From: Gammaproteobacteria bacterium
GTDB lineage: Bacteria > Pseudomonadota > Gammaproteobacteria > G965209235
Assembly: GCA_965209235.1 (NCBI GenBank)
Contig: OZ242382.1
Span: forward strand, 490,403-554,402
Reading direction: 5' to 3'
DNA length: 64,000 nucleotides
Part shown: piece after piece, positions 13,289 through 31,707 of the stretch
How the letters are laid out: the number at the start of each line of letters is the position of its first letter
How positions within the stretch are numbered: the stretch's first letter is position 1
The notes under the pieces: generated by a model
Database searches by the model: none
The model's input: only the letters and a program-made list of their open reading frames with translations
Told to the model about the DNA's origin: nothing
Made by a program: the position numbers and the translations under genes

Positions 13289-15910
13289 ATGAACAGCGCA
13301 GACATCCGCCGTGCGTTTCTCGCGCACTTCGAGCAACGCGACCACGAGGTGGTCGCGTCTGCGCCGTTGGTACCCAAAGGAGACGATACGCTCCTGTTCA
13401 CCAACGCCGGCATGGTGCCGTTCAAAGAGGTTTTCACTGGTGTGGAGCGGCGCCAACATCCTCGTGCCGTCAGTTCACAGCAGTGCGTGCGCGCGGGTGG
13501 CAAGCACAACGATCTTGACAACGTGGGATTCACGACACGTCATCACACGTTCTTCGAGATGCTCGGGAATTTCTCGTTTGGCGACTACGGCAAGCGCGAG
13601 GCCATTGAATGGTCATGGGAACTGCTGACTCAAACGTTTGGCATGGACGACAAGCGTCTGATCATCACCGTTCATAACACCGACGACGAGGCGGCGGCGA
13701 TTTGGCACACTCACATGGGTGTGCCGCGCGAACGCATCATTCGCTTAGGCGACAACTCGAACTTCTGGCAGATGGGACCGACTGGACCCTGTGGGCCCTG
13801 CAGTGAGATTTTTTTTGATCATGGTCATCAGGTCTCTGGCGGACCTCCAGGCCACCCAGATGAAGATGGCGATCGCTTCACCGAGATCTGGAATCTCGTC
13901 TTCATGCAATACGACCAGACCGAGACAAAACGCATCCCGTTGCCTAACCCGTGCATCGATACAGGCATGGGGCTGGAACGTATTAGCGCCGCCCTTCAAG
14001 GCACGCATGACAACTTCCGCACAGATCTCTTTATGCCGCTTCTCCAAGCGGCTCACGCTGAAACCGACAGCAAAGCGCCAGACTCCCCGCAGCTTCGCGT
14101 CATGGCTGATCATGCCCGCGCGGTGGTCTTTCTGTTGGCCGCGGGTGTGTCTTTTAATCCTGATGGCCGTGGGTACGTCCTGAGGCGAATCTTGAGGCGC
14201 GCGCTTCGCGCGGCTCACAAAGTAGGACGTGCTGAAGCATCCTTGATCCCCGTGATTCGTGAAGTGATTGCGCTGATGCAAGACGCCTATCCTGAGGTTC
14301 AGAAGCTCGCGCCGACGATTGAACAAGCTGTCACGCAGGAAGAAGACCTGGCCCGCGAGACTCTCGCTCGGGCGGCGCACGCCTTTCAAAAGGAGCGCGC
14401 CGATATGTCATCAGATGTGATGTCAGGCGACAGGCTCTTTTACTTGTACGACACGCTGGGCATGCCGCTGGATCTCGCACAAGACCTCGCACAAGAACAC
14501 GATATTCGCCTCGATATGGCGCAGTTTGATAGTGAGCTTGCTCAACAGCGAGCTCGCGCGAAAAGCGACCGTGCAGAAGCTGGCAGCCGCACTGCCACCG
14601 CGCAACAAGCACTGACCGGCGAACAACCCACCGAATTTATGGGATACGATGCCACATCATGGAACGCGCGTGTGACTCGGCTTCTGACACGTGGCATGGT
14701 TGACGTGAAAGAGCTCCCCCAAGGCGCACTGGGATGTGCGATCTTGGATCAGACGCCGTTTTACGCCGAAGGCGGCGGTCAAGCCGGCGATCATGGCATC
14801 CTGCGCACCGGTGACGGGGTGCGGGTGGAAGTGTCGGACTGCCGTAAGGTGGGAGACGTCTATGTGCACGACATCACCACACAAGAAGGCGTGCTCACGC
14901 ACGGTCGTGATGTCTTTGCGCAAGTCGATCCGGCGGCTCGCCGTGAAGCCGCCAGCCACCACAGTGCAACGCACCTGCTGTACTCGTCATTGCGAGAACT
15001 CTTCCCAGAGCACGACATTCAGCAACGTGGATCCTCTGTCTCTAGCGAGGGCCTGCGTTTCGACTTTACGGCTCCTCAGCAAATCACCGCCGAACAGCTC
15101 ATTTGGCTCGAAGACCGGGTCAACGAACATATTCGTGCAGCGGTTGACGTCACCACCGATGTGATGAATATTCAAGCAGCGCGCGCCAGCGGCGCTCATG
15201 CGCAGTTCGATGAAAAGTACGGCGATACCGTGCGCGTCCTCACCATGGGGATCAAAGGGATTTCGAAAGAGTTCTGCGGGGGGACGCATGTTGCCAATAC
15301 GCGCGACTGCCTCGCGTTTGTGATTACGGAAGAGAGTGCCATCGCGTCGGGCGTCCGGCGTATCACTGCCTTGGCCGGTGATGCTGCGATCGCTCACCTA
15401 CGTCGTTCAAATCACGAATACACAGCAACCCTCAAGGCACTGAGTGCCAAACCGGGCACGCTCGAAGAGCGCGTGACAGAGCTCAGGATGTCTCTTAAGA
15501 AGGCCCGGGCGCAAGCGAAAAAAGAGGCGATGAAGCCCGTGGCGCCGGCCTCCTCCGTGGAACGTGAGCAAGTCGCGGGCGTTTGGTTCGAGCATGCCAT
15601 CGTCCCGGATGCGGATGGCGCCGCGCTACGCGCGATGGCGGATCAGATCCGCTCGAAAGACAACACCGTGGGGGTGTTAATCGGAACATTCGAGAGCAAG
15701 GCTGTGGCCACAATCAGCGTCGCCTCTTCATTACTTGGCAGAATCTCTGCCAAAGATCTCTCTCTCCCCGTGTTTTCAGCATTGGGCGGGAAAGGCGGCG
15801 GTCGACCAGATTTGGTGCAAGGCGGCGGGACTCAGCCTCAAGGCGCTGAGCAAGCCGTGGCAGCAGCTCGAACCTGGCTCGCTGCCCAAAGCGACCTCTC
15901 ACCATCATGA
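13289..15910 (+). CDS. alaS: Alanine--tRNA ligase
   Basis: 873 aa with the class II aaRS motifs FTNAGMVPFK and the editing/C-Ala domains; it is collinear with AlaS. Confidence 0.97.
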   Translation: MNSADIRRAFLAHFEQRDHEVVASAPLVPKGDDTLLFTNAGMVPFKEVFTGVERRQHPRAVSSQQCVRAGGKHNDLDNVGFTTRHHTFFEMLGNFSFGDYGKREAIEWSWELLTQTFGMDDKRLIITVHNTDDEAAAIWHTHMGVPRERIIRLGDNSNFWQMGPTGPCGPCSEIFFDHGHQVSGGPPGHPDEDGDRFTEIWNLVFMQYDQTETKRIPLPNPCIDTGMGLERISAALQGTHDNFRTDLFMPLLQAAHAETDSKAPDSPQLRVMADHARAVVFLLAAGVSFNPDGRGYVLRRILRRALRAAHKVGRAEASLIPVIREVIALMQDAYPEVQKLAPTIEQAVTQEEDLARETLARAAHAFQKERADMSSDVMSGDRLFYLYDTLGMPLDLAQDLAQEHDIRLDMAQFDSELAQQRARAKSDRAEAGSRTATAQQALTGEQPTEFMGYDATSWNARVTRLLTRGMVDVKELPQGALGCAILDQTPFYAEGGGQAGDHGILRTGDGVRVEVSDCRKVGDVYVHDITTQEGVLTHGRDVFAQVDPAARREAASHHSATHLLYSSLRELFPEHDIQQRGSSVSSEGLRFDFTAPQQITAEQLIWLEDRVNEHIRAAVDVTTDVMNIQAARASGAHAQFDEKYGDTVRVLTMGIKGISKEFCGGTHVANTRDCLAFVITEESAIASGVRRITALAGDAAIAHLRRSNHEYTATLKALSAKPGTLEERVTELRMSLKKARAQAKKEAMKPVAPASSVEREQVAGVWFEHAIVPDADGAALRAMADQIRSKDNTVGVLIGTFESKAVATISVASSLLGRISAKDLSLPVFSALGGKGGGRPDLVQGGGTQPQGAEQAVAAARTWLAAQSDLSPS

Positions 15911-17214: not shown

Positions 17215-17304
<90 letters not shown>

Positions 17305-17420: not shown

Positions 17421-18323
17421 TTGGAGCACTTCGTCGCCAGAATCTCACTGGAATCTCTCGAACGATTTCTTGAAACGATTGAAGGTAACTTTCTCATATA
17501 CCTCACCGCGGCTCTCTTCTTGCTCGAACTCGTGCGTTATGGAGTCAAGAAACGACTGAGCGCCAGCCTGATTGGTGATAGCTTGGCCAACGGTGTGACC
17601 TTTATGGTTTTTGGCGTGATCACGTATTTCGTGATCGGAGCGTTTTATGTCTCAGGTTACTACTGGGCGTGGTCCATTGCCCCCTATTGGCTTGACATCA
17701 CCCCTCTCTCTATCATTGCATGCGTAGTGCTTGCTGACCTTTGCTACTACTGCGAACACCGATTTACCCATCGCGTGAATGTCGCTTGGGCAACTCATAG
17801 TGTCCACCACTCTTCACCACACTTCAATCTCTCGGTGGCGTACAGATTTGGACCGATGGATGCCTTCTGGCCGTTCTTTTTTCATGTACCGCTGGTACTG
17901 ATGGGATTTGACCCTATCTTGGTCCTCGTCTCCGAAGCTGTCGTGCAGGCCTATCAGACATGGCTTCATACCGAGGCCATCGGAAAGTTACCGCGGCCGG
18001 TGGAGTTAGTGATGAACACGCCGTCGCATCATCGCGTGCATCACGCGCGGAATCCGCAGTACATCGATAAAAACTATGGTGGTATCTTCATCATCTGGGA
18101 CAGACTCTTCGGCTCTTTCGCGAAAGAGGGAACTGAGGTTGACTATGGGCTTGTGAAGTCCATTCATAGCATCAATCCCGTGAAAATCATGTCTCATGGA
18201 TTTTCTCAGCTAGCTTATGCGTTCGTACGTGCGCAGGGCATTCGAAAACTGAGGTTGCTAATTGGCCCTCCAAGGATGATCACCGACGTGCCTGATCGGC
18301 AGGATTCCATATCAACACAGTGA
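17421..18323 (+). CDS. Fatty acid hydroxylase superfamily / sterol desaturase family integral membrane protein
   Basis: The His boxes HRFTH, HSVHHSS and HHRVHH sit within TM segments. GC is lower (~50%) than the core genes. Confidence 0.8.
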   Translation: MEHFVARISLESLERFLETIEGNFLIYLTAALFLLELVRYGVKKRLSASLIGDSLANGVTFMVFGVITYFVIGAFYVSGYYWAWSIAPYWLDITPLSIIACVVLADLCYYCEHRFTHRVNVAWATHSVHHSSPHFNLSVAYRFGPMDAFWPFFFHVPLVLMGFDPILVLVSEAVVQAYQTWLHTEAIGKLPRPVELVMNTPSHHRVHHARNPQYIDKNYGGIFIIWDRLFGSFAKEGTEVDYGLVKSIHSINPVKIMSHGFSQLAYAFVRAQGIRKLRLLIGPPRMITDVPDRQDSISTQ

Positions 18324-19214
18324 CTTGTGTTCGGGATGCACTCCTGCCTTGAGACGTCGGTGATCCGGTTACAAATCTGTAAGGGAAACGCATAAATGTA
18401 TCGAGATAGTGTGCATCTGCTCACTCCCGGTGCCACCAATTGACTGAAATTAACGCTTGTGCCAGTTATTGGATGTGACCACCAAGTCAGAGCGTGAAGC
18501 GGGTTGTGAATCCCCAAGTTGAATGACTTCCACGCCAAAACCAAAATACGATGTCGAGGCATCCGTGCGGGCATTGCGCCACTCTCAGGCTTGACGAAGT
18601 TCGTCATGTATCTGCTTGTCCACCCAAACCACAACGGATGCATTGAATCCAATGTGTCCGTCAACAGTTTTCCGAGGTGATCATGATCCGTCCGCTCAAG
18701 TTGATGCTCGATGATGACAACGTGTTCCATACCCGCTGCTCTGGCGAAAATGGCCAAAGAGATATCATCGACCGGCTGCTCTGTTTCGATGAGTTCGAGA
18801 TCCACCCCAAAACTACGGGGTGCAGTCAAAGGCCAAGTTTGCCCAGATCGCCCGAAGGTCAACTTTGGCGATCGTTCCAAGCTCGCTCACACTCAAGTCA
18901 GCATACTTGGCATGCGGTTATCGACAAACTCCTCACCCGGTGAAGATATCGACACGATCTCCTTGAGCTATAGCACTCTCGGGTATTGCTCGCTCAGGAC
19001 AGTGCAGCAGGCTCCCGCTGTCTTGCCGGCCAAAGTACAAACGCGAGTGCTCCAGCAAATTCAGCATCTCCTGATGGAGACTCTGCCTTCGTTGAGTGTG
19101 TCATGCGCGAGAGTCCGCAGCTGATGTTTCTCAGATGTACCTATGACGGGAGTGGCGGAAGAGCCTCACAATGGGTCGGTCTTATGAACGCCAAACAAGC
19201 ACCTACCAGACCTC

Positions 19215-20756
19215 GTGCGGCCGATCGCATGTACAGGACATACTCGACCACCGCATATGACTATGGGATTCTCATATTCCCAATTATTGATCTATATACC
19301 CGACAAGATAATGTGTCGGAATCCAATTCACGCTACCGTGATGGAGATGTTGCGCACACGCATCCGTGCGTGTGTCTGTAGGCTGCAGTTACGAGTATGG
19401 TCGGGTTCGCCGATAACAGCAGCCGCGCGCGTCATTATTGCGACATTCGTTGCGGCAGCAGCGCTTCTTGTGTTATTAGAGCCAGTACATACCAATCGCT
19501 CGACCCATGTCACATCGCTAACCGCTGAACAATCCCCAAGGACATTGATGGCCTATCCTCCAGTGTCTGCAGTTCATGCCAAGATGATCCATGGCGTCAG
19601 CCGAATCCTACAGATCAAAGCGTCGTTCTCCGCCAAGCTCCTCGTGATCGCCTCAATGGGCCTAGCTATAGTCACTCTGCTGGTTGCGGCCGGGCCATCG
19701 GGACATTGGCTCTCACTCCTTTGCATTTGGCCAGCAACAGCGGTCGTCGTTGGTGTCGACAGGGCAGAAGGCATTGAAACGAGCTTCATCATATCAGTCA
19801 CGACAATCGCAGTCCTCACAGCGAATGGTCACGCATCTCGCAGTTGGCGGTTGCCCATCGCTTTGGGAGTAGTCTCTTTCGTTGCGGCGCTGATTTCCGG
19901 CAACGTTCTATTTGTGGTCGCGGCATTCACATATCCTTGCGTAGTACTCCTCACCCACCGACATATCCAAGCAGCCGGCCGCGTGGCTGTCTTAGCCGGT
20001 CTAACAGGCATGGCCCTCGCGGCCGTCGACGTGCTCCTCTCGCTCGGGCACTTCTCCTTACTCACAGGCAGACTGGCCTCTGAAAGCCCGCTGGCTTCGG
20101 TTCTCTTTCAAGAGCTCACGGTGACGGGGGTACTGTCTTTCGTGATCTTCCTAGCCGTCGTCCATCTAACACGTGGCCTTTCGCACCAACCGTTGTATCA
20201 AGTCGGATTCGCATTGCTAGCAGTTGGCGGCGCTGACATGCTGGCCTCACCACAACTTCCCTTCACCTTCGTTTTCTCGCTTGGGTGGTTCCTAGTAGCC
20301 GCAGGTGTACTAACCATCATTGCCGCTTCCTCGCGGATGGGCCTTTGGATCGCCAGTCTCGCCTCTGCCGCTATCGCGTTCACGTCCCTCACACTCAACG
20401 CACGCGACTCTCTGTACGCTCGATTCCAAGCCGGACCCGAACAGAGCTTCCGTCTGGTCAAACATCTCTACCGAAACATTCCCACCGGATCCGTCACATT
20501 TTCCTGTGCGGAGTCAACCCCATACGTAAGACCAGACATACAGCGATGGCTCGTGACAGATGTTCTGTCCTTCGAAGAACAGCTTCAGAGCATACAAGCT
20601 GATCGTTCAATCTACATCTGCGCTTCCATGGGACAGAAACTTCACTATGTTAAATGCTCTTACGACGGTGGAGTCGAACCTGCAGTCCTACCTGCAGATA
20701 CCTTAGCGCGTCTCGAAGACAAAGCCGGTTCGTGCCTACCCATCAAGTTGAGATGA
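19215..20756 (+). CDS. Polytopic (~10 TM) membrane protein with ~130-aa C-terminal soluble domain; function unknown (Wzy/ligase-like topology possible)
   Basis: A long ORF with many hydrophobic helices. The likely true start is an internal Met near 19341 (MEMLRTRI...). Confidence 0.5.
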   Translation: MRPIACTGHTRPPHMTMGFSYSQLLIYIPDKIMCRNPIHATVMEMLRTRIRACVCRLQLRVWSGSPITAAARVIIATFVAAAALLVLLEPVHTNRSTHVTSLTAEQSPRTLMAYPPVSAVHAKMIHGVSRILQIKASFSAKLLVIASMGLAIVTLLVAAGPSGHWLSLLCIWPATAVVVGVDRAEGIETSFIISVTTIAVLTANGHASRSWRLPIALGVVSFVAALISGNVLFVVAAFTYPCVVLLTHRHIQAAGRVAVLAGLTGMALAAVDVLLSLGHFSLLTGRLASESPLASVLFQELTVTGVLSFVIFLAVVHLTRGLSHQPLYQVGFALLAVGGADMLASPQLPFTFVFSLGWFLVAAGVLTIIAASSRMGLWIASLASAAIAFTSLTLNARDSLYARFQAGPEQSFRLVKHLYRNIPTGSVTFSCAESTPYVRPDIQRWLVTDVLSFEEQLQSIQADRSIYICASMGQKLHYVKCSYDGGVEPAVLPADTLARLEDKAGSCLPIKLR

Positions 20757-20821: not shown

Positions 20822-22060
20822 ATGTGGCTTAAACGCAAGTTAGACCAGTTACGCCACCAGCGACCGGCTGACATTGGATATCGGTTGTGCGTATGTGGCA
20901 TTCTGGTACTTGGATCTTTAACCATGACCATCCATAGTTCAACACAGCCGTCTCTTGCGAGCCAAGCTCACGCAGACGGGTTCCTATATCTCTCGATTGC
21001 GACCAATATCCTTGAAGGTCATGGCGCGACAGCCTCCGGCAATGGCTCGACAGATACTTCTCTCCGCCATCTCAACCGTTGGCCGGTTGGATACCCGTTA
21101 CTCGTCGCTGCGATCGCGGGAGCCACAGGCACGTCTACACTGGCTGCAGCCAAGATCCTTGGTGCCGTTGCGCTGTGCCTCGCCGGCGGTATATTGATTT
21201 TCGCGCTCGGACGCACAACACCTTGGGTTGCGCTGACGTTACTGATGTACTCCAGTGTGTTTGCATTCTCCAAGGCCGGTACCGAAGGCGTACTTGTGAC
21301 CGCGCTGATTCTTGTAGCCTTCTTGACCTGTAAGACACTGCATAGATCGGGACGCCAACTTCATTTTGCGCTCGCGATGCTTGGCGTATCCATTTATATC
21401 GCATTCCTACTGCGGTATCACGGTGCGTTCGCACTGTGCACTCTGTTGTTCCCATTCATCGAGGCACTGCGAGATCGACGGCACATCGACGCCATTGCCA
21501 CCGTCGCCGTTGGGTTCGTTGTCCTCTTGGCAATGGTTAGTTATTGGGCTGTTGCATCCTTGTTCGGCAGCTCTACCGGTCACCCTGAACAGACAGCCGT
21601 CTTGATTGATGTGGATTTTCAATACATCCCCCAAATGTCTCAACAGGTCATCAACATTATTCGCCAGCAGACGATGATCCTCCCATGGCAGCCCTGGGCA
21701 AGAGCTCAATGGCTGACCTTGGCTATTCCACTCTTTGGCCTCTCACTTTCCAGCATATGGCAATGGAAACGCGGCGAGACGCCGACAGCATTCTTCCCTT
21801 TGACCAATCTTGGAAACATCTTGGTTTTTCTGGCAGGCTGCTATATCGTGAGCATAGTGTTCGCAAGTTCCGTTCTGCACTTCGACGCACTCAATTACCG
21901 CTTAATGATGCCAGCATCCTGTCTGCTGATGCTCGGCGTCTTGACTTGGTGCGCACGCAGTTCGCGATGGTTAGCTATCTTCGCTGGATGGCTCGCCGTC
22001 TCCATGGCTGGCCTGACATCTTACTGGGCCGCTGTGGAGTCAATTGCCTTTACTGGCTAA
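20822..22060 (+). CDS. GT-C fold glycosyltransferase (ArnT/PMT family 39/83-like)
   Basis: The N-terminal first-loop motif DGFLYLSIATNILEGHG matches the D..Y...A...G pattern of PMT_2/ArnT-like enzymes. It is followed by multiple TM helices. Confidence 0.6.
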   Translation: MWLKRKLDQLRHQRPADIGYRLCVCGILVLGSLTMTIHSSTQPSLASQAHADGFLYLSIATNILEGHGATASGNGSTDTSLRHLNRWPVGYPLLVAAIAGATGTSTLAAAKILGAVALCLAGGILIFALGRTTPWVALTLLMYSSVFAFSKAGTEGVLVTALILVAFLTCKTLHRSGRQLHFALAMLGVSIYIAFLLRYHGAFALCTLLFPFIEALRDRRHIDAIATVAVGFVVLLAMVSYWAVASLFGSSTGHPEQTAVLIDVDFQYIPQMSQQVINIIRQQTMILPWQPWARAQWLTLAIPLFGLSLSSIWQWKRGETPTAFFPLTNLGNILVFLAGCYIVSIVFASSVLHFDALNYRLMMPASCLLMLGVLTWCARSSRWLAIFAGWLAVSMAGLTSYWAAVESIAFTG

Positions 22061-22379
22061 CTTGATGATGACGCTGACTAACCAGAGGAACCGGCGGGTC
22101 TGTTGACGCATGAATGCGCACGGGAAGCAAGAGTAGTGACTCGAAAGCCTCCTAGAGTTGAAACGGCTCACTTAGACAGGTAGGCGTCTTTCATCCATGT
22201 GTAGAAGGAGTTTGGATGAATTGCCACTGCCTGACTTGCTTCTCTTCTTGCAAACGAATCATCGTGGCCCACAAAAGAACGGTATCGCTCCCGGAGAGTT
22301 CCTTAAGCATGTCGTCAGCTGAGCGAGGGAAAATGTCCGGAAATCGCCGATGACGTATCGGGAAGAATGTCGATACAGG

Positions 22380-22721
22380 AAGTGTGTGGCTTTGGAGCCA
22401 CTGGGGAGCGGTTTACTGCACCATCCGTGTGATTCCTTTCAGGTCCGATATATCCCCAATACCTTTGCGGAACTATCCATCGAAATCAATCAGAAAACGG
22501 GACATACCCTCGTGTTCGCGTTCGAAAAATATCGGTTGATGGCAAGATCTGGATCGCATCCTTCACCTCAACCCCATCTGGCACGTTACCAATCTGTCCG
22601 TACGAACATAAGTGGTACGGCTGCCTATAAGCAAGGAATGATCACATGCAAATAATCTCGGATCACCCAGTGATTGGCCCGCCCACAGTGCCTGAACAGG
22701 AGCATATTGGCGCTCGGTCAT
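22380..22721 (-). pseudogene. Degenerate remnant of a GT32 (DXD) glycosyltransferase paralog
   Basis: The minus-strand translation gives MTERQYAPVQALWAGQSLGD, then after a frameshift EIICM*SFLAYRQPYHLCSYGQIGNVPDGVEVKDAIQILPSTDIFRTRTRGYVPFSD*FRW. This is collinear with the N-terminal 150 aa of the intact paralogs at 23784..24716 and 24769..25680, but carries two in-frame TGA codons and at least one frameshift. Confidence 0.7.
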
Positions 22722-22760: not shown

Positions 22761-23771
22761 TTACTGAATAAACTCAGCCACACGCTGATTGAGATCGCGC
22801 TTCAATTGGTTCACCATATCTCGATCGACTGTGCGATATTGCATCGCAATGTCACTGCCCGGCTCTCCCCCGTCATATCCACCTAGATAAGGACGAAGTC
22901 CCGCAAATCGAGGGTCCCTCTCGTACGCCGCATTGATGAACACCATATCGGTATTGAATGCTCGGCAAGGAAGCCCGCAATGTAAGCGGGTGGTCAACAC
23001 CAACTCCGCACGCCTGTACTGATCCAGGACCTGTTGCGCAAACTTCAATCGGACCTGAGGCTGGAATCGCATCGGATCACCTTCATCAAACTCGTGCGCG
23101 ACCTTCGTTGAAGATGCCCACGGTTTCAGATTGTTCCCGTGGTACTCAAGGTAATCAACACCTGGAGGCATGTCAACGAGATAAGTCCCTTCGCGAGGCT
23201 CGACGCTCTCATCAAACGTCAATGTCAAGCATCCGCTGAAGTACGCGTCTATTCCTGCAGCCTTGAAATGCTCCACGGTGGCTTCATCCCGGCACCCGAT
23301 TGGTGCGTGCTTCTGGAAGTACTCTTTGTAACGCGAGATTAACCGAAGGTCGTTGACGTGAAAACTGATAAACGTCGGATAGATATTGGCAGGAGGCTCA
23401 AACATATTCAAATTGTGCGAGTACCAGCCGTTCATGATTACACGGACGGGCGGGCCGTCGTACAGGGATAACCGTTCCCGGTCAATCAGCACGATCTCCT
23501 CCTCTGATACACCCTGCTTCTTCAGGAGATTGATAGCCGCCAAAGTCTGCACATCATCACCAATGTTATGTGTACTCGCCCATATCACACCAAATCGTTG
23601 AGGCGTTTGCCGCACGAGCGCCTTCGCTCGTTGCCGCAGGAGATTCCCGCGAATACGGTCGTTTTCATTGGTCCGTCCTCGGATCACTCGACTGAGCCAC
23701 TTGGTGCCGCGCATCATCCTTGATCGCACATGGACACAGCCACTTGCCGCCGGTGCTGCGCAACGGCCCAT
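22761..23771 (-). CDS. Polysaccharide pyruvyl transferase family protein (WcaK/CsaB-like)
   Basis: It has the N-terminal NIGDDVQTLAAINLL (the GN.GD motif) and the C-terminal TTRLHCGLPCRAFNTDMVFI (the RLH motif). It is a paralog of 29363..30463 and 30535..31707. Confidence 0.6.
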   Translation of the reverse strand: MGRCAAPAASGCVHVRSRMMRGTKWLSRVIRGRTNENDRIRGNLLRQRAKALVRQTPQRFGVIWASTHNIGDDVQTLAAINLLKKQGVSEEEIVLIDRERLSLYDGPPVRVIMNGWYSHNLNMFEPPANIYPTFISFHVNDLRLISRYKEYFQKHAPIGCRDEATVEHFKAAGIDAYFSGCLTLTFDESVEPREGTYLVDMPPGVDYLEYHGNNLKPWASSTKVAHEFDEGDPMRFQPQVRLKFAQQVLDQYRRAELVLTTRLHCGLPCRAFNTDMVFINAAYERDPRFAGLRPYLGGYDGGEPGSDIAMQYRTVDRDMVNQLKRDLNQRVAEFIQ

Positions 23772-23783
23772 GTGAACACTATC

Positions 23784-24716
23784 TCATTGGATTTCATAAC
23801 TTGACCCTTCTGCAGCCCGGTCCTTCGTAAAACGATTGAGTATCTGAGCATAAAACGACTGGGAGTGCATTCCCGTCGCATGATGGCTCGTATTTTGTGC
23901 CCAAGACACCATATTGGCCCAAAAATGCACCGTGTAGCTGGATGCCAGACGATCGACAACCGCTTCGGCCGGTCGGTCGAAAATCTCGTGAAACCGATGC
24001 GGCGGGATAGGGAAAAAGGCCGAGGGTGAAAGCGCACTCTCCTCTAACAAACGTGGCCAATATCTCCTCAGATGCTCGGTGACGCTCGTGGGGCCAATGA
24101 CATCTTCCAGCGACGCAAGCGCGTGCACCTTGTACGCGTCCCAGGGCGCTTGACGTCTCATGCGCAGGAGTCCTCGGATCTCTTTCCACGGCAACGGGCG
24201 CTTGCGAACCATGGCACCAAAAAGAGCGCTTCGGATGCGCCGATTGGCATGTCGATCGATTTGCGCAAGGATTTCTCCCGCGATAGGGTGTCCTTTGGGT
24301 AGACGTAAGCACGCCAGACATACGACTGCGTTATTCAAATTAACGAAGTGTTCATATCCAAAGACAACCTCATTCGTGAAGTCGAGAGGCTTCAGGCAAA
24401 AAACGTCAGTATCGACGTAGTAACCACCACGTTGGTCCATGAGTGCAAATCGAAACCAGTCAGAAAACGGGGCGTACCCACGTGATTTCGTGCGGTAGAC
24501 ACTCGTCTTGGGCAAGATCTCGGTTGCGTCCTTGCACAGAACGCCAGACGGCAGATTCTGAACCGGCGCGTAGGTGTACAAGTGGTAAGGATGTCCCATC
24601 TCGAGAAACGAACGCGCGCAGAGAGCGGACAGTTCTGAAAACGTGTCCCCAATCCAAAGAGCCTGCACTGGTTCGAACTGCTGAACTTTTTCGGAATCTG
24701 CGGACATATGTATCAA
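23784..24716 (-). CDS. GT32-like glycosyltransferase (sugar-binding region with DXD motif, OCH1/Gly_transf_sug family)
   Basis: The motifs PVQALWIGD and YAPFSDWFRFALMDQRGGYYVDTDVFCLKPL give the GT32 SD..R...L...GG.Y.D.D pattern. Confidence 0.7.
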   Translation of the reverse strand: MIHMSADSEKVQQFEPVQALWIGDTFSELSALCARSFLEMGHPYHLYTYAPVQNLPSGVLCKDATEILPKTSVYRTKSRGYAPFSDWFRFALMDQRGGYYVDTDVFCLKPLDFTNEVVFGYEHFVNLNNAVVCLACLRLPKGHPIAGEILAQIDRHANRRIRSALFGAMVRKRPLPWKEIRGLLRMRRQAPWDAYKVHALASLEDVIGPTSVTEHLRRYWPRLLEESALSPSAFFPIPPHRFHEIFDRPAEAVVDRLASSYTVHFWANMVSWAQNTSHHATGMHSQSFYAQILNRFTKDRAAEGSSYEIQ

Positions 24717-24768
24717 TTGTCACGCACGGGGCTGCGATTGCATTTGGGCAGATTCTGACGCTTGCATG

Positions 24769-25680
24769 TTAGCTAGATAGATACCGATCCTTCATCCACT
24801 CATAGAACGAGTTTGGGCGCACGACGATATCGTGCCCTTGCTTCTGTTCATGCGCTCGGATCATCGTCGCCCAGATGTGCAGGGTATAGCTCTCTGAAAT
24901 CTCATCCAGCACGTCTTCGGCTGCGCGAGTAAAGATGTCTTCGAATCTCTGTGGTGTCAGCGGAAAGAAAGATTTCGTGGGCTGGGTGTGACTCGCTAGT
25001 AACTCCGGTGCATCCCGCTGTATTGCCACAGTCACTCCATCGGGGCCGATCATATCTTCGACTGATTTCAACACTTTCAACCTGTACTTTGAATAGTCGC
25101 AAGACACGAATGTCTTCGCAAGGTCGATAATCTGATTCCGATGTACGCTGCGCCACTTTCTCAGTTTCTGCATCGTGAGACTGCCTAGACGGCGTTTGAC
25201 GAATTTGTCAACTTCTTGCAGCATGGTACTGCACAGAACGTGTCCGGCTTGCATCCGAATAACCGCTGTACCGAGCCTCGTTTCAACGGGAGGATCGAAG
25301 ACTTCCCACCCAAAGACGATGTCTTCAGAAAAGTCTAGCGGTCTCAAGCACAACACATCCGTATCAACCCAATAACCGCCGCGTTCCTGAAAAAGGGCCC
25401 ATCGAAACCAGTCAGAGAAAGGCGCGTAGCCACGGTAATTGGTTGCGTACACACACGACGCGGGCAAAACCGCATTAGCGTCCTTCAGTTCAACGCCGCT
25501 TGGGAGGTTGTCAATATCGTTGTATGTGTACAGGTGGTACGGGTGCCCATGCTCGAGAAAGGACCGCATGCACATGACTTCTGTCGCGCCTAGCTTGTTT
25601 CCGACCCACAATGCCTGAACGGGTGGTAATTGTCCGGTTTGTGCAGTTGGTTGGCTCGTGTGCGCCATAACCGAGAGCAT
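24769..25680 (-). CDS. GT32-like glycosyltransferase paralog
   Basis: It has PVQALWVGN and YAPFSDWFRWALFQERGGYWVDTDVLCLRPL, and is ~55% identical to 23784..24716. Confidence 0.7.
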   Translation of the reverse strand: MLSVMAHTSQPTAQTGQLPPVQALWVGNKLGATEVMCMRSFLEHGHPYHLYTYNDIDNLPSGVELKDANAVLPASCVYATNYRGYAPFSDWFRWALFQERGGYWVDTDVLCLRPLDFSEDIVFGWEVFDPPVETRLGTAVIRMQAGHVLCSTMLQEVDKFVKRRLGSLTMQKLRKWRSVHRNQIIDLAKTFVSCDYSKYRLKVLKSVEDMIGPDGVTVAIQRDAPELLASHTQPTKSFFPLTPQRFEDIFTRAAEDVLDEISESYTLHIWATMIRAHEQKQGHDIVVRPNSFYEWMKDRYLSS

Positions 25681-25919
25681 CTGGTCACAGGTCTTAACGT
25701 GTGATTATGGCATAGCCCTGCGACCTCATGAAACCCTCTAGGCAAATAACTTCCCATCTCGCTAGTCAGCCGTGTCGCCCGCATCATTCAAGAGCACCCT
25801 CAATGCCAGTGATTGGGTCGTAATCCACCCGCAAGTCACGGAAATCTGAATCGTATGCGCCGCTTCCAAGAGTCGACATAAGAAAATAGTAGGCATCCAC
25901 TACTTGAGGACGACGTCAC

Positions 25920-27149
25920 GTGTCAGCCTTTGGCATTCCGGTTCCGCCAGCCCGCCCTGGTGAACAGCCCGACTTTTCTTCTTTGAACTTGTCCGACCTT
26001 GTGAATCCTCACGTCCCAGCGATCGACTGTTCTGCTCATGACACCCAAGATGCGTCAACAGGCCTGATCCGCGTGTTGCGCGATTCTGCAACGCTGAGTG
26101 GCCCATGGTACAACGCGGATGAACCCGCGTTTTCTGACGATGCACTACTGACCACACTGAAGAAGATGTTTGCGTTGCGCCACTATGACGACGTCATGAT
26201 GCGGGCACAGCGACAAGGGAAAACGACGTTCTGTGTTCAGAACAAAGGAGAGGAAGCAGTCGCCTTAGGGGTGCAAGCCGCTACTCAGAAGGGTGACATG
26301 CACTTTCCGACCTATCGGGGACACGGCATCCTCTTTGGACTGGACTATCCCATTGTTGACCTCATGTGCCAATGCTATGCCAACACCAAAGACCCTCTCG
26401 GTGGCCGGCAACTACCAGCCTTGGTGTCGTCGAGAGCACATGGCTACTTCACCATCTCCGGAAACCTTGCGACCCAATACTCCAACGCTGTTGGCTGGGC
26501 GATGGCCTCTGCGATCAAGGGCGAGACATCAGCCACCATTGGTTGGATCGGAGAAGGATCAACCGCCGAAAATGACTTCCATGCGGCCACGGTTTTCGCG
26601 TCCACGTACCGCCCGCCGATTGTGCTGGTGGTTGTGAACAACCAGTGGGCCATTTCCACGTTTCAAGGCGTGGCTGCTGGTGGGCGAACGACTTTTGCCC
26701 AACACTTCATTGGGGCTGGCATTCCAGCGTTGAGAGTGGATGGCAATGACTTTTTCGCTGTTGTCGCAGCCGCCCGCTATTCCCTTAACCGCGTACGCGC
26801 TGGCCACGGCCCCATCGGGATAGAGATCGTGACCTATCGCGCGGGACCTCACTCATCATCCGATGATCCCTCGCTATACCGCCCTGCCGAAGAAGCCAGT
26901 CAGTGGCCCCTTGGAGATCCCGTCGATCGCTTATCGACATTCCTCATTGAGCAGGGCACGGTCACCCGCGAACACCTTGAAGAGGTCAAAATGGATGCCC
27001 ATCGTGAGATCGATGAAGCCCAAAAAGTTGCTGAGTCGCACGGCACCTTTCGCGACGGTCGACTAGCACCAACAGAACGGATGTTTGACGACGTGTATGC
27101 ATCCATGCCGGATCATATTCGGCGCCAGAAAGAGGAGGCCACATCCTGA
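25920..27149 (+). CDS. bkdA1: Branched-chain 2-oxoacid dehydrogenase E1 alpha subunit
   Basis: It aligns along its full length with Pseudomonas BkdA1 (PARPGEQPDFS, YRGHG, ISGNLATQ, the TPP-binding region). Confidence 0.9.
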   Translation: MSAFGIPVPPARPGEQPDFSSLNLSDLVNPHVPAIDCSAHDTQDASTGLIRVLRDSATLSGPWYNADEPAFSDDALLTTLKKMFALRHYDDVMMRAQRQGKTTFCVQNKGEEAVALGVQAATQKGDMHFPTYRGHGILFGLDYPIVDLMCQCYANTKDPLGGRQLPALVSSRAHGYFTISGNLATQYSNAVGWAMASAIKGETSATIGWIGEGSTAENDFHAATVFASTYRPPIVLVVVNNQWAISTFQGVAAGGRTTFAQHFIGAGIPALRVDGNDFFAVVAAARYSLNRVRAGHGPIGIEIVTYRAGPHSSSDDPSLYRPAEEASQWPLGDPVDRLSTFLIEQGTVTREHLEEVKMDAHREIDEAQKVAESHGTFRDGRLAPTERMFDDVYASMPDHIRRQKEEATS

Positions 27150-28162
27150 TGAAAGCGACGTCCATGATTGAAGCCATTCGCGATGCACATGCATGTGAAA
27201 TGGAACGTGACCCCACAGTCATTGTGTTTGGGCAAGATAGCGGCTACTTCGGCGGCGTGTTTCGCGCAACCGCCGGGCTGCAAAAGCGATTCGGCCTCCA
27301 GCGGTGCTTTGATGCCCCCATCAGTGAGTGCGGCATCATCGGAGTGGGCGTTGGCATGGCTGCCAACGGACTCAGGCCTGTTGTTGAAATCCAATTTGCT
27401 GACTACGTCTACCCTGGATACGACCAAATTGTCTCCGAAGCCGCAAAGATTCGGCACCGTTCTGGGGGAGACTTTTCCTGCCCCATGGTAATCCGAATGC
27501 CTTACGGCGGTGGCATCTATGGAGGCCAAACACATAGTCAAAGTCCTGAGGCCCTGTTTACCCATATTGCGGGCATCAAGACAGTGATCCCTTCTACGCC
27601 TTACGATGCCAAAGGACTCCTTATTGCGGCAATCCGAGACCCGGACCCGGTGGTGTTTATGGAACCTAAGCGCCTGTACCGAGGCCCATTTTCTGGACAT
27701 CACAACCAACCAGCACAGAATTGGTCCACGCACGAGGCGTCTGATGTCCCCATGGGCAGCTACGAAGTTCCCATTGGAAAAGCCGCAATCGCTCGACCAG
27801 GCAATGCCATCACGGTTCTGTGTTATGGAACGATGGTCCATGTCGTCATGACTGCCGCAAGCGAAGCGCAGATTGATGCCGAAGTCATTGATATACGCAC
27901 ACTAGTGCCACTTGATCTCGACACGATCACAACTTCTGTGAAAAAAACAGGACGATGCATAGTGGTCCATGAAGCCCCCCGCACGAGTGGCTTTGGAGCC
28001 GAACTGGTGGCTGCCGTCCAAGATGAAGTGTTTTTCCATCTTGAAGCACCGATTGCCAGAGTGACCGGTTGGGATACGCCGTATCCCCACGCCCAGGAGT
28101 GGGATTACTTCCCTTCGCCTGCGCGCATCGCGCGTAGCATGCAGCAGACTTTGGAGGCGTAA
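27149..28162 (+). CDS. bkdA2: Branched-chain 2-oxoacid dehydrogenase E1 beta subunit
   Basis: It has transketolase-like pyrimidine-binding and C-terminal domains. Its start codon overlaps the bkdA1 stop. Confidence 0.9.
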   Translation: MKATSMIEAIRDAHACEMERDPTVIVFGQDSGYFGGVFRATAGLQKRFGLQRCFDAPISECGIIGVGVGMAANGLRPVVEIQFADYVYPGYDQIVSEAAKIRHRSGGDFSCPMVIRMPYGGGIYGGQTHSQSPEALFTHIAGIKTVIPSTPYDAKGLLIAAIRDPDPVVFMEPKRLYRGPFSGHHNQPAQNWSTHEASDVPMGSYEVPIGKAAIARPGNAITVLCYGTMVHVVMTAASEAQIDAEVIDIRTLVPLDLDTITTSVKKTGRCIVVHEAPRTSGFGAELVAAVQDEVFFHLEAPIARVTGWDTPYPHAQEWDYFPSPARIARSMQQTLEA

Positions 28163-28164
28163 GG

Positions 28165-29355
28165 ATGTTCGCTTTTAACTTACCTGATGTCGGTGAAGGA
28201 ATTGCCGAAGCGGAACTCATTGAATGGCACGTCGAGGTGGGAGATGCAGTCGCAGAACACGCGCTGATCGCCACCGTGATGACAGAAAAAGTCACAGTCG
28301 AGGTTCCTTCGCCGTTTGCCGGGAAGGTTATGTGGCGCTGCGGTGATGTGGGTGACATTCTGGCTGTCGGCGCCCCTCTCGTGAAATTTGATGGTGCGAC
28401 GCCTCTTGTGACAGATGTCAAACAGGCTGATCCCACACCGCCACATCCAGCGAATGAGCTGCATGATGGATCGCCCCGGCAAACCACGCAGGCCGCGCCA
28501 GCCGTACGGCGGTACGCCCGAGAACTAGGTATTGATCTGAGCACCATCACGGGGACCGGGCCAAAGGGGCGGGTACTGCGCGGCGATATCGATCGCCATC
28601 AGGCCCAAGGACCATCGTCGTTGCACCCAGCGCCGACATTAGCCTCACCTCAAAACCCAACTGACGCCCCAGACACGGTCGTGCCCGTCCGCGGATTGAG
28701 ACGCACGATTGCGAAACGTCTGTCTGCCGTCAATAGTGACGTCCCCCACATCACGTATGTGGAAGAGGTGGACATGACGCAAACACTAGCGCTTCGCGAT
28801 CAGTTCCAGCGCAGCCAATCTCTCTCCCTCAGCCCGCTGCCGTTCATCGCTCGCGCCGCATGTCAAGCATGTCGCGACTTCCCGCAAATCAACGCGACCT
28901 ATGACGCCGAAGCTCAGTCAGTCGTTCAGCACTCATCTGTGCATCTCGGCATTGCGACCCAAACCGAGCGCGGCTTGGTTGTCGGCGTCGTGAAGCATGC
29001 GGACAAAAGGCTGGTTCCAGATCTGGCCAGTGAAATCACGCGCGTCTCCGGTGCTGCCAAGCAGGGACGCGCCACTCGTGAAGAACTCAGCGGCTCGACG
29101 CTCACCATTACCTCATTGGGAAAACTCGGCGGCATCGTCGTCACCCCCTTAATCAATCCGCCCGAAGTGGCCATTTTGGGAATCAATCGCATTCGGACCC
29201 AGCCGGTCTGGAGCAACGGAACGTGGCTACCACGCGAAATGATGAATATCTCGTGTAGTGTTGATCATCGTTTCGTGGATGGCTACGACATCGCTGCGTA
29301 TATCCAGCGCCTCAAAGAAATACTCGAGCATCCGGGCTTGACGACTCTATCGTAA
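28165..29355 (+). CDS. bkdB: Dihydrolipoamide branched-chain acyltransferase E2
   Basis: It has an N-terminal lipoyl domain (MTEKVTVEVPSPFAGKV), an E3-binding domain and the catalytic DHRFVDG motif. Confidence 0.9.
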   Translation: MFAFNLPDVGEGIAEAELIEWHVEVGDAVAEHALIATVMTEKVTVEVPSPFAGKVMWRCGDVGDILAVGAPLVKFDGATPLVTDVKQADPTPPHPANELHDGSPRQTTQAAPAVRRYARELGIDLSTITGTGPKGRVLRGDIDRHQAQGPSSLHPAPTLASPQNPTDAPDTVVPVRGLRRTIAKRLSAVNSDVPHITYVEEVDMTQTLALRDQFQRSQSLSLSPLPFIARAACQACRDFPQINATYDAEAQSVVQHSSVHLGIATQTERGLVVGVVKHADKRLVPDLASEITRVSGAAKQGRATREELSGSTLTITSLGKLGGIVVTPLINPPEVAILGINRIRTQPVWSNGTWLPREMMNISCSVDHRFVDGYDIAAYIQRLKEILEHPGLTTLS

Positions 29356-29362
29356 CGCCAAG

Positions 29363-30463
29363 CTATCCTGCCTTGCGCACGTCATCCACAATCGCTTGTA
29401 CGCGACTTAAAAGCTCGGCCTTTTTCTCATCAACAAACTCGGGATTCCCCTTCCGGTAGCTGACATCAATCTTGCTGCCTTTCTCACCCCCGTCGTAGCC
29501 ATGCAGATAGGGCAGCAAGCCTCCAAAACGCGGGTCCGACGTGATGTGCTTGTGCAGAAAGACGACATCTGTGTTGAACGCGCGACAAGGAAGCGCGCAA
29601 TGCAGGCGGCTAGTCACGACTAATTCAGCATTTCGATACTTGGCTAACAGCTCCTGAGCCACTTGGAGACGCCGACGCGGCCGACTAAACAGCGCACGAT
29701 TACCGCCCTGAAATGCATCGTGGGAGATGACATGAAGTCGCTGCAAGTCCGTAAGGTCGTTGCCGCGGCATGCACCTTGGTTGCATTTCGGATTGAGATC
29801 AACAGAATACCCACCGTTTCTTGGAGCAGAGCTCTTATCGAACGTCAGCGTCAGGCACCCAGTGAAGTACGCATCAATTCCGCGTTTTTGTAAGCAATCA
29901 ACGGTCCACTGATCACGGCAGCCTATAGGACCTTGAGCTTTGAAGAAATCGATGTAACGATCGATCAGCCGGTCATCCTGGAGATGGAAGCTGATCATCG
30001 CGGGAGACACGTGCGCAGGCGGCACAAACATCTCCTTATTCGTGGTATACCACCCATTCATGATTAACTTGACCGGCGGGCCGTTGTAAGCTGACAGTCT
30101 CTCGCGATCAATCAGGATAATCTCAGATTCGTCCACGCCGCAGTGTTTCAGTGCATTGATCGCGGCAAGAGCCTGAATGTCATCCCCGATATTGACGCCA
30201 CTAACCCATATGACCCCAAACTTCGTCGGCCGAGCCTCTTTTCTCTGAGGGGCCCGGCCTTCAGTTGGGTTCCCAACGAACTGCTGCCGCACGCCATTGG
30301 CCACGGCGCGCTGGCTGTACGTCCCGACCCTGAGATCGAGGTGACGCACGAAATAGTCAGACGGAGTCCCGTCATCCCGCGAAAACCACATGCGGTCCTT
30401 GGTGCGTTTGAGGTAGTCGCCAAAGGGACCTAACCTCACCTCGTTCATCAACCGCTTAAGCAT
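29363..30463 (-). CDS. Polysaccharide pyruvyl transferase family protein (paralog 2)
   Basis: It has NIGDDIQALAAINAL and TSRLHCALPCRAFNTDVVFL. It converges on the bkdB stop, leaving only a 7-bp gap. Confidence 0.6.
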   Translation of the reverse strand: MLKRLMNEVRLGPFGDYLKRTKDRMWFSRDDGTPSDYFVRHLDLRVGTYSQRAVANGVRQQFVGNPTEGRAPQRKEARPTKFGVIWVSGVNIGDDIQALAAINALKHCGVDESEIILIDRERLSAYNGPPVKLIMNGWYTTNKEMFVPPAHVSPAMISFHLQDDRLIDRYIDFFKAQGPIGCRDQWTVDCLQKRGIDAYFTGCLTLTFDKSSAPRNGGYSVDLNPKCNQGACRGNDLTDLQRLHVISHDAFQGGNRALFSRPRRRLQVAQELLAKYRNAELVVTSRLHCALPCRAFNTDVVFLHKHITSDPRFGGLLPYLHGYDGGEKGSKIDVSYRKGNPEFVDEKKAELLSRVQAIVDDVRKAG

Positions 30464-30534
30464 GCGCTCTAAAGATCAACACCCAGTCATCGCCGATTCT
30501 ATGTCTGGATAAAGCCAGCCTTTATCCTCGGCAA

Positions 30535-31707
30535 TTATCCAGATTTTGTTTTGTCAACAATGACTTTGATACGATCGCTCAACTCCGCCTTGATTTGATT
30601 GATGCCGGCTCGATCAACCGTCCGATAGCTGAGATCAACCAGACTGTCCGTCTGGCCGCCGTCGTACCCATTCAGGTAGGGGCGCAACCCACCAAAACGC
30701 GGATCCTCTTCTATCTTGCTGTGGAGAAAGATGACATCTGTGTTCATTGCCCGGCACGGTAACGCGCAATGTAAGCGCGTCGTCACAACGAGCTCTGCGG
30801 TGCGAAATTTGTGCAATAGGTCCTGAGCCATCATGAGCCGCCTACGCGGCAGAAAACGCACGGGGTTGCTCGGGACAAAGGCATCATGCCGGATCGAGAT
30901 CGGATTCTGTAAATTCGACAGATCATTCCCTCGATAAAAGCTCGGGATCGGATCATCCCATAGATCTGACGCATACGTACCAGACCGGGGGGCATCACTC
31001 TCATCAAAGGTTAACGTCAAGCAACCAGAAAAATACGCGTCAATTCCGCGTTTCTTCATCATCTCGACGGTCGCTAGGTCTCGACATCCAACCGGTCCAT
31101 GCTCTTTCAAGAATGCCTGATAGCGGTCAATCAACTCTTCGCGAGCGATATGCATGCTGACGATGAGCGGCGAAACATGCGGCGGCGGTTCAAACATCTC
31201 CTGATTGTGCGTGAACCACCCATTCATAATCAACGTCACCGGCGGACCGTCGTATAGCGACAGGCGTTCTCGATCGATGAGCACTATCTCTGACTCAGTC
31301 ACCCCGTGCTTCTTCAGCAGGTTGATGGCAGCGAGAGTCTGAACGTCATCGCCGATATTCACTGTGCTGGCCCAAAGAACGCCGAATTTCTTTGAGGATG
31401 TGCTGGCAGCCCCTGCTTGCTGTCGCGCATTCCACACCGGTTTTGTCTTCTGCGGCGCCCGACCGGTCAAAGCGGTGACTGATGCCGATGGCCCTTGATT
31501 AGCGATTTGGAGGGTTTGGGGATTCACGAAGTACCGTGTCGCATCGTCCTCATTGTCGTCACGACTCAACCGTTTTTGTATGGCCCTGTAGGTATCTCCC
31601 ACTCTACCGTGCCAACCATAAGTTGCCAACCGGCGTACCAACCCGAAGGCAGGACGGGGGGTTGCTGCCATGTTATCTCTCCAATTGCTTAAACAAAACG
31701 TCTGCAC
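30535..31707 (-). CDS. Polysaccharide pyruvyl transferase family protein (paralog 3)
   Basis: It has NIGDDVQTLAAINLLKKHG and TTRLHCALPCRAMNTDVIFL. Confidence 0.6.
   Translation of the reverse strand: MQTFCLSNWRDNMAATPRPAFGLVRRLATYGWHGRVGDTYRAIQKRLSRDDNEDDATRYFVNPQTLQIANQGPSASVTALTGRAPQKTKPVWNARQQAGAASTSSKKFGVLWASTVNIGDDVQTLAAINLLKKHGVTESEIVLIDRERLSLYDGPPVTLIMNGWFTHNQEMFEPPPHVSPLIVSMHIAREELIDRYQAFLKEHGPVGCRDLATVEMMKKRGIDAYFSGCLTLTFDESDAPRSGTYASDLWDDPIPSFYRGNDLSNLQNPISIRHDAFVPSNPVRFLPRRRLMMAQDLLHKFRTAELVVTTRLHCALPCRAMNTDVIFLHSKIEEDPRFGGLRPYLNGYDGGQTDSLVDLSYRTVDRAGINQIKAELSDRIKVIVDKTKSG

Follow-up and report, generated by a model that had tools for sequence, protein, structure and literature searches.

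Gene content of the pyruvyltransferase-GT32 cluster

The 64-kb stretch of contig OZ242382.1 analysed here (the window) carries a cluster in which three genes for polysaccharide pyruvyltransferases (PvTs), two genes for glycosyltransferases (GTs) of family GT32 and one dead GT32 copy flank a branched-chain 2-oxoacid dehydrogenase (bkd) operon on both sides. A Pfam scan was applied across the 64 kb to all open reading frames (ORFs) of at least 150 amino acids (aa) not largely overlapping a longer assigned ORF. An earlier description made from the letters alone (hereafter the sequence-only reading) had placed these genes on the minus strand with a plus-strand bkdA1-bkdA2-bkdB operon between them, and the ORF listing together with the Pfam assignments shows that order to be correct. 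The families that it had named also hold in the scan: PF04230 three times, GT32 twice plus a pseudogene, and the E1 alpha, E1 beta and E2 subunits of branched-chain 2-oxoacid dehydrogenase (BCKDH). Along the window, the features are as follows.

22174-22712, minus: GT32 pseudogene, recovered as tblastn fragments; it lies outside the segment that begins at 22761
22761-23771, minus: PvT1, polysaccharide pyruvyltransferase paralog, 336 aa (PF04230, 56.6 bits; NIGDD, RDEAT and RLH)
23784-24716, minus: GT32b (PF04488, 30.2 bits, cutoff 23; PF04572, 26.5 bits, cutoff 22.3)
24769-25680, minus: GT32a (PF04572, 23.5 bits, cutoff 22.3; PF04488, 21.7 bits, just under the cutoff of 23)
25920-27149, plus: bkdA1, E1 alpha (Pfam E1_dh, OxoDH_E1alpha_N)
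27149-28162, plus: bkdA2, E1 beta (Pfam Transket_pyr/Transketolase_C)
28165-29355, plus: bkdB, E2 (Pfam Biotin_lipoyl/E3_binding/2-oxoacid_dh)
29363-30463, minus: PvT2, pyruvyltransferase paralog, 366 aa (PF04230, 62.5 bits)
30535-31707, minus: PvT3, pyruvyltransferase paralog (PF04230, 52.7 bits)

Read in the direction of minus-strand transcription, the order is GT32a, GT32b, PvT1 and the pseudogene and, across the bkd operon, PvT3 and PvT2. The GT32a, GT32b and PvT1 genes follow one another on a single strand at spacings of 52 and 12 bp, and the bkdB stop (29355) and the convergent PvT2 stop (29363) are indeed separated by the 7 bp previously reported. Database gene calls give 31671 as the likely start of PvT3 (378 aa; P0002) and 24707 as that of GT32b (307 aa; P0124), and PvT2 matches database protein P0001 exactly. 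Behind topA lies a terminator-like hairpin (31716-31699).

No export or polymerization machinery accompanies these genes. The sequence-only reading had called it absent from the whole stretch, and the Pfam scan bears this out: the window contains no Wzx, Wzy, Wzc or Wza, no glycan ABC exporter, no priming phosphoglycosyltransferase, and no NDP-sugar enzyme. Its sole ABC system is pstSCAB, and the remaining large ORFs are mostly housekeeping genes (purL, alaS, lysC, topA, an M2 peptidase, an H+-pyrophosphatase, pstSCAB-phoU, and phoBR). The presence of a Porin_4 porin points to a Gram-negative envelope.

The transferases and their relatives

All three PvTs far exceed the PF04230 cutoff of 25.3 bits (52.7-62.5 bits) and cover the entire model. 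Each carries NIGDD, RD(E/Q/L)(A/W)T and RLH, and in an alignment of the 32-member PvT subfamily N91, G93, D94, R183, R286, L287 and H288 are invariant, with T187 conserved in at least 90% of members. NxGD, Rxxx(S/T) and a His have been described as motifs common to glycan pyruvyltransferases in a study of Klebsiella WbbZ (PMC10629545), and mutagenesis of CsaB assigns the binding of phosphoenolpyruvate (PEP) to Arg and His in the R-x-H element (PMC10435577). The paralogs are 51-57% identical to each other by BLAST (PvT1-PvT3 57%, PvT1-PvT2 53%) and 49-52% in global alignment. A phmmer search of PvT2 against PDB sequences returned zero matches, as did the same search with GT32a.

The two GT32 enzymes are 42% identical by BLAST and 41% in global alignment, and both retain an intact DXD motif, here DTD, in the contexts YYVDTDV (GT32b) and YWVDTDV (GT32a). 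The GT32a subfamily is rare, with 20 homologs among 5.8 billion proteins. The GT32 pseudogene proposed earlier is real; it appears as tblastn fragments at 22709-22665, 22680-22450, 22466-22236 and 22227-22174 in alternating frames, 48-67% identical to GT32a. It has accumulated at least three frameshifts and a deletion of residues ~104-204, DXD motif included, and its GC content of 0.499 is the lowest of the region. Identities of just 41-57% among the PvT and GT32 paralogs indicate that the duplications are ancient. Full motifs kept at ~50% divergence, beside a decayed paralog, argue that the five enzyme genes are under long-term purifying selection, and catalysis is predicted for their products. 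Because none of PvT1-3, GT32a or GT32b contains a hydrophobic segment, all five are expected to act in the cytoplasm.

A search with PvT2 recovered 663 homologs, mostly ~270-aa proteins of marine metagenomes. Among the best 120 of these 663, the PvT domain is fused to GT32 in nine, to GT8 in seven, to GT25 in one, and to a methyltransferase in five. Some of the closest homologs reside on giant-virus contigs, where they often adjoin or are fused to GT32 or GT8 domains; one such contig (L082) has four major-capsid genes of nucleocytoplasmic large DNA viruses (NCLDV) and another (L086) replication factor C (RFC) subunits and an mRNA-capping enzyme; L082 also holds FA_hydroxylase and NUDIX genes, families found near the window cluster too. 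A scan of IMG/VR yielded 16 PvT loci at 41-48% identity, many from giant-virus metagenome-assembled genomes (GVMAG), and in 4 of the 16 (two being the same sequence) a GT32-domain coding sequence lies ~0.9-1.3 kb upstream of the PvT match. The window PvTs are no more similar to viral homologs than to bacterial ones (36-45%). A putative functional partnership of PvT with GT32 is thereby independently backed by both domain fusions and giant-virus neighbourhoods; a literature search for a pyruvyltransferase together with GT32 found nothing.

Tandem arrays of the same families occur in other small genomes, all from one ENA study. Three tandem PvTs lie beside GT2 genes at 6087-16882 of L001 (a 2.18-Mb contig), four between a tauE-lgt-thyA group and lon-hupB at 5844-12467 of L083 (2.36 Mb), and five paralogs of the window's rare GT32 subfamily between coxB and coxA at 6031-10999 of L085 (1.16 Mb). 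Within-genome paralog identities are 49-52% in the window, 80-84% in L001, 53-82% in L083, and 79-96% in L085; paralogs cluster by genome, and the tandem expansions are therefore independent. One unannotated 388-aa gene stands beside the array in each of L083 and L001, and the L001 array also adjoins four paralogs of 377-390 aa (52-92% identical); neither Pfam nor NCBIfam recognizes any of these. It is conceivable, if doubtful, that PvT (with GT32, GT8 or GT25) constitutes a mobile cassette for surface-glycan diversification, common to marine giant viruses and to Pseudomonadota with small genomes that branch deeply or evolve fast, and independently amplified into arrays of 3-5 paralogs that have landed in core operons (coxB/coxA in L085, bkd in the window) or, in L083, beside lon. 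Were this so, pyruvylated glycans might have an arms-race or host-mimicry role, and the bacteria might be protist-associated and exchange glyco-genes with giant viruses.

The bkd operon and the surrounding genes

The operon enclosed by the array encodes a genuine BCKDH E1 alpha, E1 beta and E2 set. BkdA1 aligns over its full length with the alpha subunit of Pseudomonas putida 2-oxoisovalerate dehydrogenase (best PDB matches 2bp7 and 1qs0, E ~6e-125), OxoDH_E1alpha_N is present, and every score of the bkd E1 against NCBIfam models specific for pyruvate dehydrogenase (PDH) or 2-oxoglutarate dehydrogenase (OGDH) falls under the cutoff; the assignment follows from these three results. The order A1-A2-B and the tight spacing are those of the P. 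putida bkdR-bkdA1A2B-lpdV operon, and a 1-nt overlap of bkdA1 with bkdA2 and a 2-nt spacing between bkdA2 and bkdB make translational coupling probable. The window differs from P. putida in having neither lpdV nor bkdR anywhere in its 64 kb. The disulfide motif of dihydrolipoamide dehydrogenase (E3) occurs nowhere in it, queries with E3 proteins from related loci recovered no remnants there, and the divergent gene upstream of bkdA1, where bkdR would be expected, is GT32a.

The comparison set for this operon consists of the best 80 bkdA2 loci listed (66-71% identity), mostly from Alphaproteobacteria with some Granulosicoccaceae. E3 directly follows bkdB in ~50 of these 80, and adjacent E3 is absent in ~11 of the ~60 with enough downstream sequence. 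The sequence-only reading was thus right that the usual lpdV and bkdR neighbours are missing, but the lack of an adjacent lpdV, to judge from the comparable loci, is a minority but ordinary state and not an oddity of this locus. Within 10 kb, no homolog of PvT or GT32 accompanies any of the 80 listed loci, and none of them shares synteny with the window beyond bkd itself. The proviso that relatives might carry an intact operon with the paralogs elsewhere holds loosely: the databases searched contain no closer relative, and the listed bkd loci have no such neighbours. Because of that zero among 80, and because arrays elsewhere sit in different housekeeping contexts, the link with bkd appears incidental; the position of bkd inside the array is most likely an old rearrangement in a compact genome.

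It had also been suggested that the array arose around bkd through segmental duplication, or by insertion into the operon, which the data do not support. Identity among the paralogs amounts to just 41-57%, the surroundings of bkd showed neither direct or inverted repeats nor insertion sequence (IS) elements apart from the paralogy itself, and E3 remnants are lacking, so nothing points to a recent event. GC content, ~0.58 before the tRNA-Ser gene (17215), is 0.50-0.54 from there to 25.7 kb (against 0.57-0.60), and both GC and GC at third codon positions (GC3) are modestly lower from tRNA-Ser to topA, the bkd genes included. No integrase or repeat was seen near the low-GC stretch at tRNA-Ser, which may be what is left of an old island; the idea of an island with sharp limits at tRNA-Ser was weighed and dropped, given that GC3 differs only modestly and does so in bkd too. 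The tRNA-Ser(GCT) gene itself (17215-17304, plus) directly follows lysC, and an Rfam scan of the window found tRNA only. The source lineage would, on protein similarity, be a deep-branching or fast-evolving member of the Pseudomonadota: the best non-self match of its AlaRS (alaS, 13289-15910) among 5.8 billion proteins is 47% identical, with Gamma- and Alphaproteobacteria mixed among the matches, and all window proteins checked form singleton clusters (source GC ~57%). The order alaS-lysC-tRNA-Ser, which we take to be that of Pseudomonas, together with a P. putida-type bkd, presumably indicates gammaproteobacterial affinity.

Two membrane-protein genes adjoin the cluster on its pseudogene side.

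19215-20756, plus: polytopic membrane protein, 513 aa (match to a GT-C-like family profile)
20822-22060, plus: candidate membrane glycosyltransferase of GT-C fold, 412 aa (family alignment with Asp52 and Tyr56)

They had been put forward as a GT-C enzyme and a polytopic membrane protein, which the analysis supports; neither resembles a flippase or a polymerase. The 412-aa protein has the transmembrane fold of GT-C enzymes, and Asp52 and Tyr56 in its first loop are invariant across 40 family members. An exhaustive search recovered 199 distant homologs of ~500 aa, whose C-terminal domain is missing from the 412-aa protein. Relative to the GT-C families ArnT, PMT, ALG and Aft/Emb, it is without a Pfam or NCBIfam assignment, shorter, and devoid of that C-terminal domain; sequence searches of Pfam, NCBIfam and PDB gave zero matches for both the 412-aa and the 513-aa protein. 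Alignment of the 513-aa protein with the profile of the same family (A1) by hhalign reaches 94.9% probability (E 4.5e-8) and is strongest over the C-terminal soluble domain, and family C-termini give weak tblastn matches at 20385-20732, within its gene. By profile comparison, it is a putative divergent relative of its neighbour's GT-C-like family and retains the C-terminal soluble domain that the 412-aa protein is without. The conserved acidic residue of the first extracytoplasmic loop is present in the 412-aa protein (D52), whereas in the 513-aa protein this loop is unrecognizable, and its Asp/Tyr catalytic loop was not found in another reading frame either. The true start of the 513-aa gene is probably downstream of 19215. 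Upstream of it, the ~900 bp at 18324-19214 contain no convincing ORF, only an overlapping minus-strand ORF of 221 aa without a family match; this stretch may be a degraded gene, and the N-terminus of the adjoining 513-aa protein also looks unreliable.

Further out, a plus-strand gene at 17421-18323 encodes a membrane fatty-acid hydroxylase (PF04116) with weak similarity to OlsE (E 1e-16, far below the family cutoff), and its presence may indicate hydroxylated membrane lipids. The phosphate ABC permeases at 54320-58161 (minus) are unusually long (557 and 723 aa), with BPD_transp_1 confined to the C-terminal part.

Three co-directional minus-strand genes at 5318-11270 (847, 399 and 738 aa) are built from units of ~400 aa that are 28-33% identical and share the motifs YVVS..P.R and DDD. 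Four units are intact and one is degenerate. They have no Pfam or NCBIfam match even at loose thresholds, and an AlphaFold model from the five-unit alignment (predicted local distance difference test score, pLDDT, 42.6) was not good enough to search with for folds; the sole hint of a GT-A-like half is a beta-alpha-beta pattern that terminates in DDD. The genes could represent a novel family of multi-domain glycosyltransferases or polymerases. The sequence-only reading had described a four-unit GT-A operon here and linked it to the cluster. The four intact units stand, but the tie is conjecture, with nine housekeeping or unrelated ORFs and a tRNA gene between this operon and the membrane-protein pair.

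A predicted glycan-tailoring module, its rivals and its known parallels

The reading preferred here, at a probability of roughly 55%, is that the locus serves as an accessory module for glycan tailoring and requires no dedicated exporter, with bkd functionally unrelated to it. This proposal starts from the families, the intact motifs, the GT-C fold, the lack of export genes in the 64 kb, and the recurrent coupling of PvT with GT32, and extends from them to an acceptor molecule, an order of reactions, and an export route. GT32a and GT32b, soluble DXD-type enzymes dependent on nucleotide sugars, would attach terminal hexoses to a glycan carried on a lipid, working on the cytoplasmic side of the inner membrane. 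GT8, GT25 and GT32 are typical families of lipopolysaccharide (LPS)-core and lipooligosaccharide (LOS) glycosyltransferases, and the fusion of members of this PvT subfamily to all three favours an LPS-core or LOS acceptor. The most plausible acceptor would be the LPS or LOS outer core, failing which an O-chain or capsule primed elsewhere. PvT1-3 would then cap different terminal sugars with PEP-derived pyruvate ketals, adding negative charge, and the product would leave through generic machinery encoded elsewhere, either MsbA/Lpt or a remote Wzx or ABC system. The 412-aa GT-C-fold protein may add a further, periplasmic sugar from a polyprenyl-phosphate donor, and bkd would draw its E3 subunit from a gene elsewhere.

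Several observations weigh against this proposal. Neither an acceptor glycan nor an LPS-core (waa) gene nor an exporter is present in the 64 kb inspected, out of a genome of at least 1.47 Mb. Other members of the window's GT32 subfamily are single orphan genes in unrelated, non-glycan contexts, and the substrates of GT32a and GT32b could be other than polysaccharide. In giant viruses, the GT32 domains that accompany PvT are of another subfamily (18-20% identity). The 7-bp convergent junction of bkdB and PvT2 leaves no room for terminators, and expression may therefore suffer from transcriptional interference. Finally, the signs of decay (the pseudogene, the ~900-bp ORF-poor stretch, and a GT-C relative lacking its catalytic loop) mean that part of the glycan module may be non-functional.

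The same genes could instead belong to a conventional but dispersed pathway for exopolysaccharide, capsular polysaccharide or O antigen, which would assemble a repeat unit on undecaprenyl pyrophosphate (Und-PP), export it through a remote Wzx/Wzy or ABC system, and build a polymer de novo. Most characterized PF04230 enzymes (WcaK, GumL, ExoV, PssM, and EpsO) do act on Und-PP-linked repeat units (PMC6801904), the tandem PvT array of L001 adjoins GT2 genes, and inspection covers 64 kb only. This explanation is nonetheless unlikely, though the most probable of the rivals: no priming enzyme, flippase, polymerase, or NDP-sugar gene occurs within 22 kb on one side and 32 kb on the other, and the GT8, GT25 and GT32 domains fused to PvT typify LPS-core and LOS enzymes and not repeat-unit pathways. 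Attachment of pyruvylated glycans to surface proteins, as on the capsid fibrils of giant viruses, is improbable. It would accord with the presence of some of the closest PvT homologs on giant-virus contigs (L082, L086 and the 16 IMG/VR loci), with the 4,6-pyruvylated GlcNAc of Mimivirus fibrils and the annotation of L143 as a pyruvyltransferase (PMC10117803), and with the occurrence of protein O- and N-glycosyltransferases among GT-C enzymes; yet no candidate acceptor protein or oligosaccharyltransferase partner was identified, and similarity to the viral PvTs is no higher than to bacterial ones (36-45%).

Equally improbable is a degenerating island, acquired by horizontal transfer into a genome that is now shrinking, in which some or all of the cluster has lost its function and deletions account for the odd layout. 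To the GT32 pseudogene and the ORF-poor gap at 18324-19214, such a scenario would add the loss of the catalytic loop in the 513-aa GT-C relative and of the C-terminal domain in the 412-aa one, the lower GC (0.50-0.54 against 0.57-0.60) from tRNA-Ser to 25.7 kb, the absence of lpdV, and the mere 7 bp between bkdB and PvT2. The five enzyme ORFs, however, are full length with all catalytic motifs intact at ~50% identity, which argues for long-term purifying selection, and the GC3 differences are modest and shared by bkd. The physical interleaving of glycan genes with bkd raises a further scenario, in which bkd products prime the branched-chain acyl part of a glycolipid, the fatty-acid hydroxylase contributes to it, and its head group is glycosylated and pyruvylated. 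The FA_hydroxylase gene at 17421-18323 is weakly OlsE-like, and GT32 includes glycosphingolipid glycosyltransferases (the Pfam Gb3_synth region). Yet bkd occupies the opposite strand and shares no transcript with the glycan genes, PvT or GT32 neighbours accompany 0 of the 80 listed bkd loci, PvT/GT32 arrays in other genomes adjoin unrelated housekeeping genes, and no lipid-synthesis gene for a glycolipid anchor is present. All of this renders a bkd-linked glycolipid highly improbable.

If the tailoring-module reading is right, the locus would add another small, stand-alone combination of transferase and PvT that confers negative charge on a bacterial surface without export of its own, a type of module easily missed when polysaccharide loci are found via their exporters. 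The three diverged PvT paralogs would be handy for studying how acceptors are selected in a class of enzymes of which hardly any have been characterized. This PvT subfamily occurs in marine giant viruses, fused to various LPS-type glycosyltransferases, and in independent arrays of several reduced bacterial genomes, a distribution suggestive of gene exchange and of diversifying selection acting on pyruvylated surface glycans at sea.

The closest parallels bear on the claim that the gene set is non-canonical, which does not stand: there is precedent for stand-alone GT and PvT loci acting on a glycan synthesized elsewhere, such as wbbY-wbbZ of Klebsiella pneumoniae (PMC10629545). No classical Wzx/Wzy-, ABC- or synthase-dependent locus was found in the window; what it contains is a GT adjoining a PvT without export or precursor genes, as in a wbbYZ-type locus. 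In giant viruses, Mimivirus L143 is an annotated pyruvyltransferase, the fibril glycans carry 4,6-pyruvylated GlcNAc, and Megavirus Mg538 is likewise annotated (PMC10117803). The giant-virus PvTs belong to the same PF04230 subfamily as those of the window (40-49% identity) and are likewise coupled to GT-A-type glycosyltransferases, but they decorate capsid-fibril glycans, and their GT32 is of another subfamily (18-20% identity). The LOS outer core of Pseudomonas stutzeri OX1 bears two 4,6-pyruvate ketals (PMC6801904, citing Leone et al. 2004). This Gram-negative proteobacterium offers a functional analogy only, in that several terminal LPS-type sugars are independently pyruvylated without a dedicated exporter; a similar multiplicity of pyruvylated sugars would explain several PvT specificities in the window.

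In K. pneumoniae O1, wbbY-wbbZ is unlinked to the main O-antigen locus, and it extends and pyruvate-caps the O antigen made there (PMC10629545). The differences from the window are considerable. The Klebsiella locus has one GT and one PvT, against three PvTs, two GT32s and a pseudogene; WbbY is a two-module polymerase, unlike the GT32 enzymes; mobile elements flank wbbYZ, and none was seen here; and phmmer, run against PDB sequences with E values of up to 10 allowed, detected no similarity between WbbZ and the window PvT. Both loci nevertheless pair a GT with a PF04230-type PvT in the absence of export, priming and precursor genes, and their PvTs have in common NxGD, RxxxS/T and a His. By analogy with wbbY-wbbZ, the window locus would be a further case of a known kind of accessory glycan-tailoring module.

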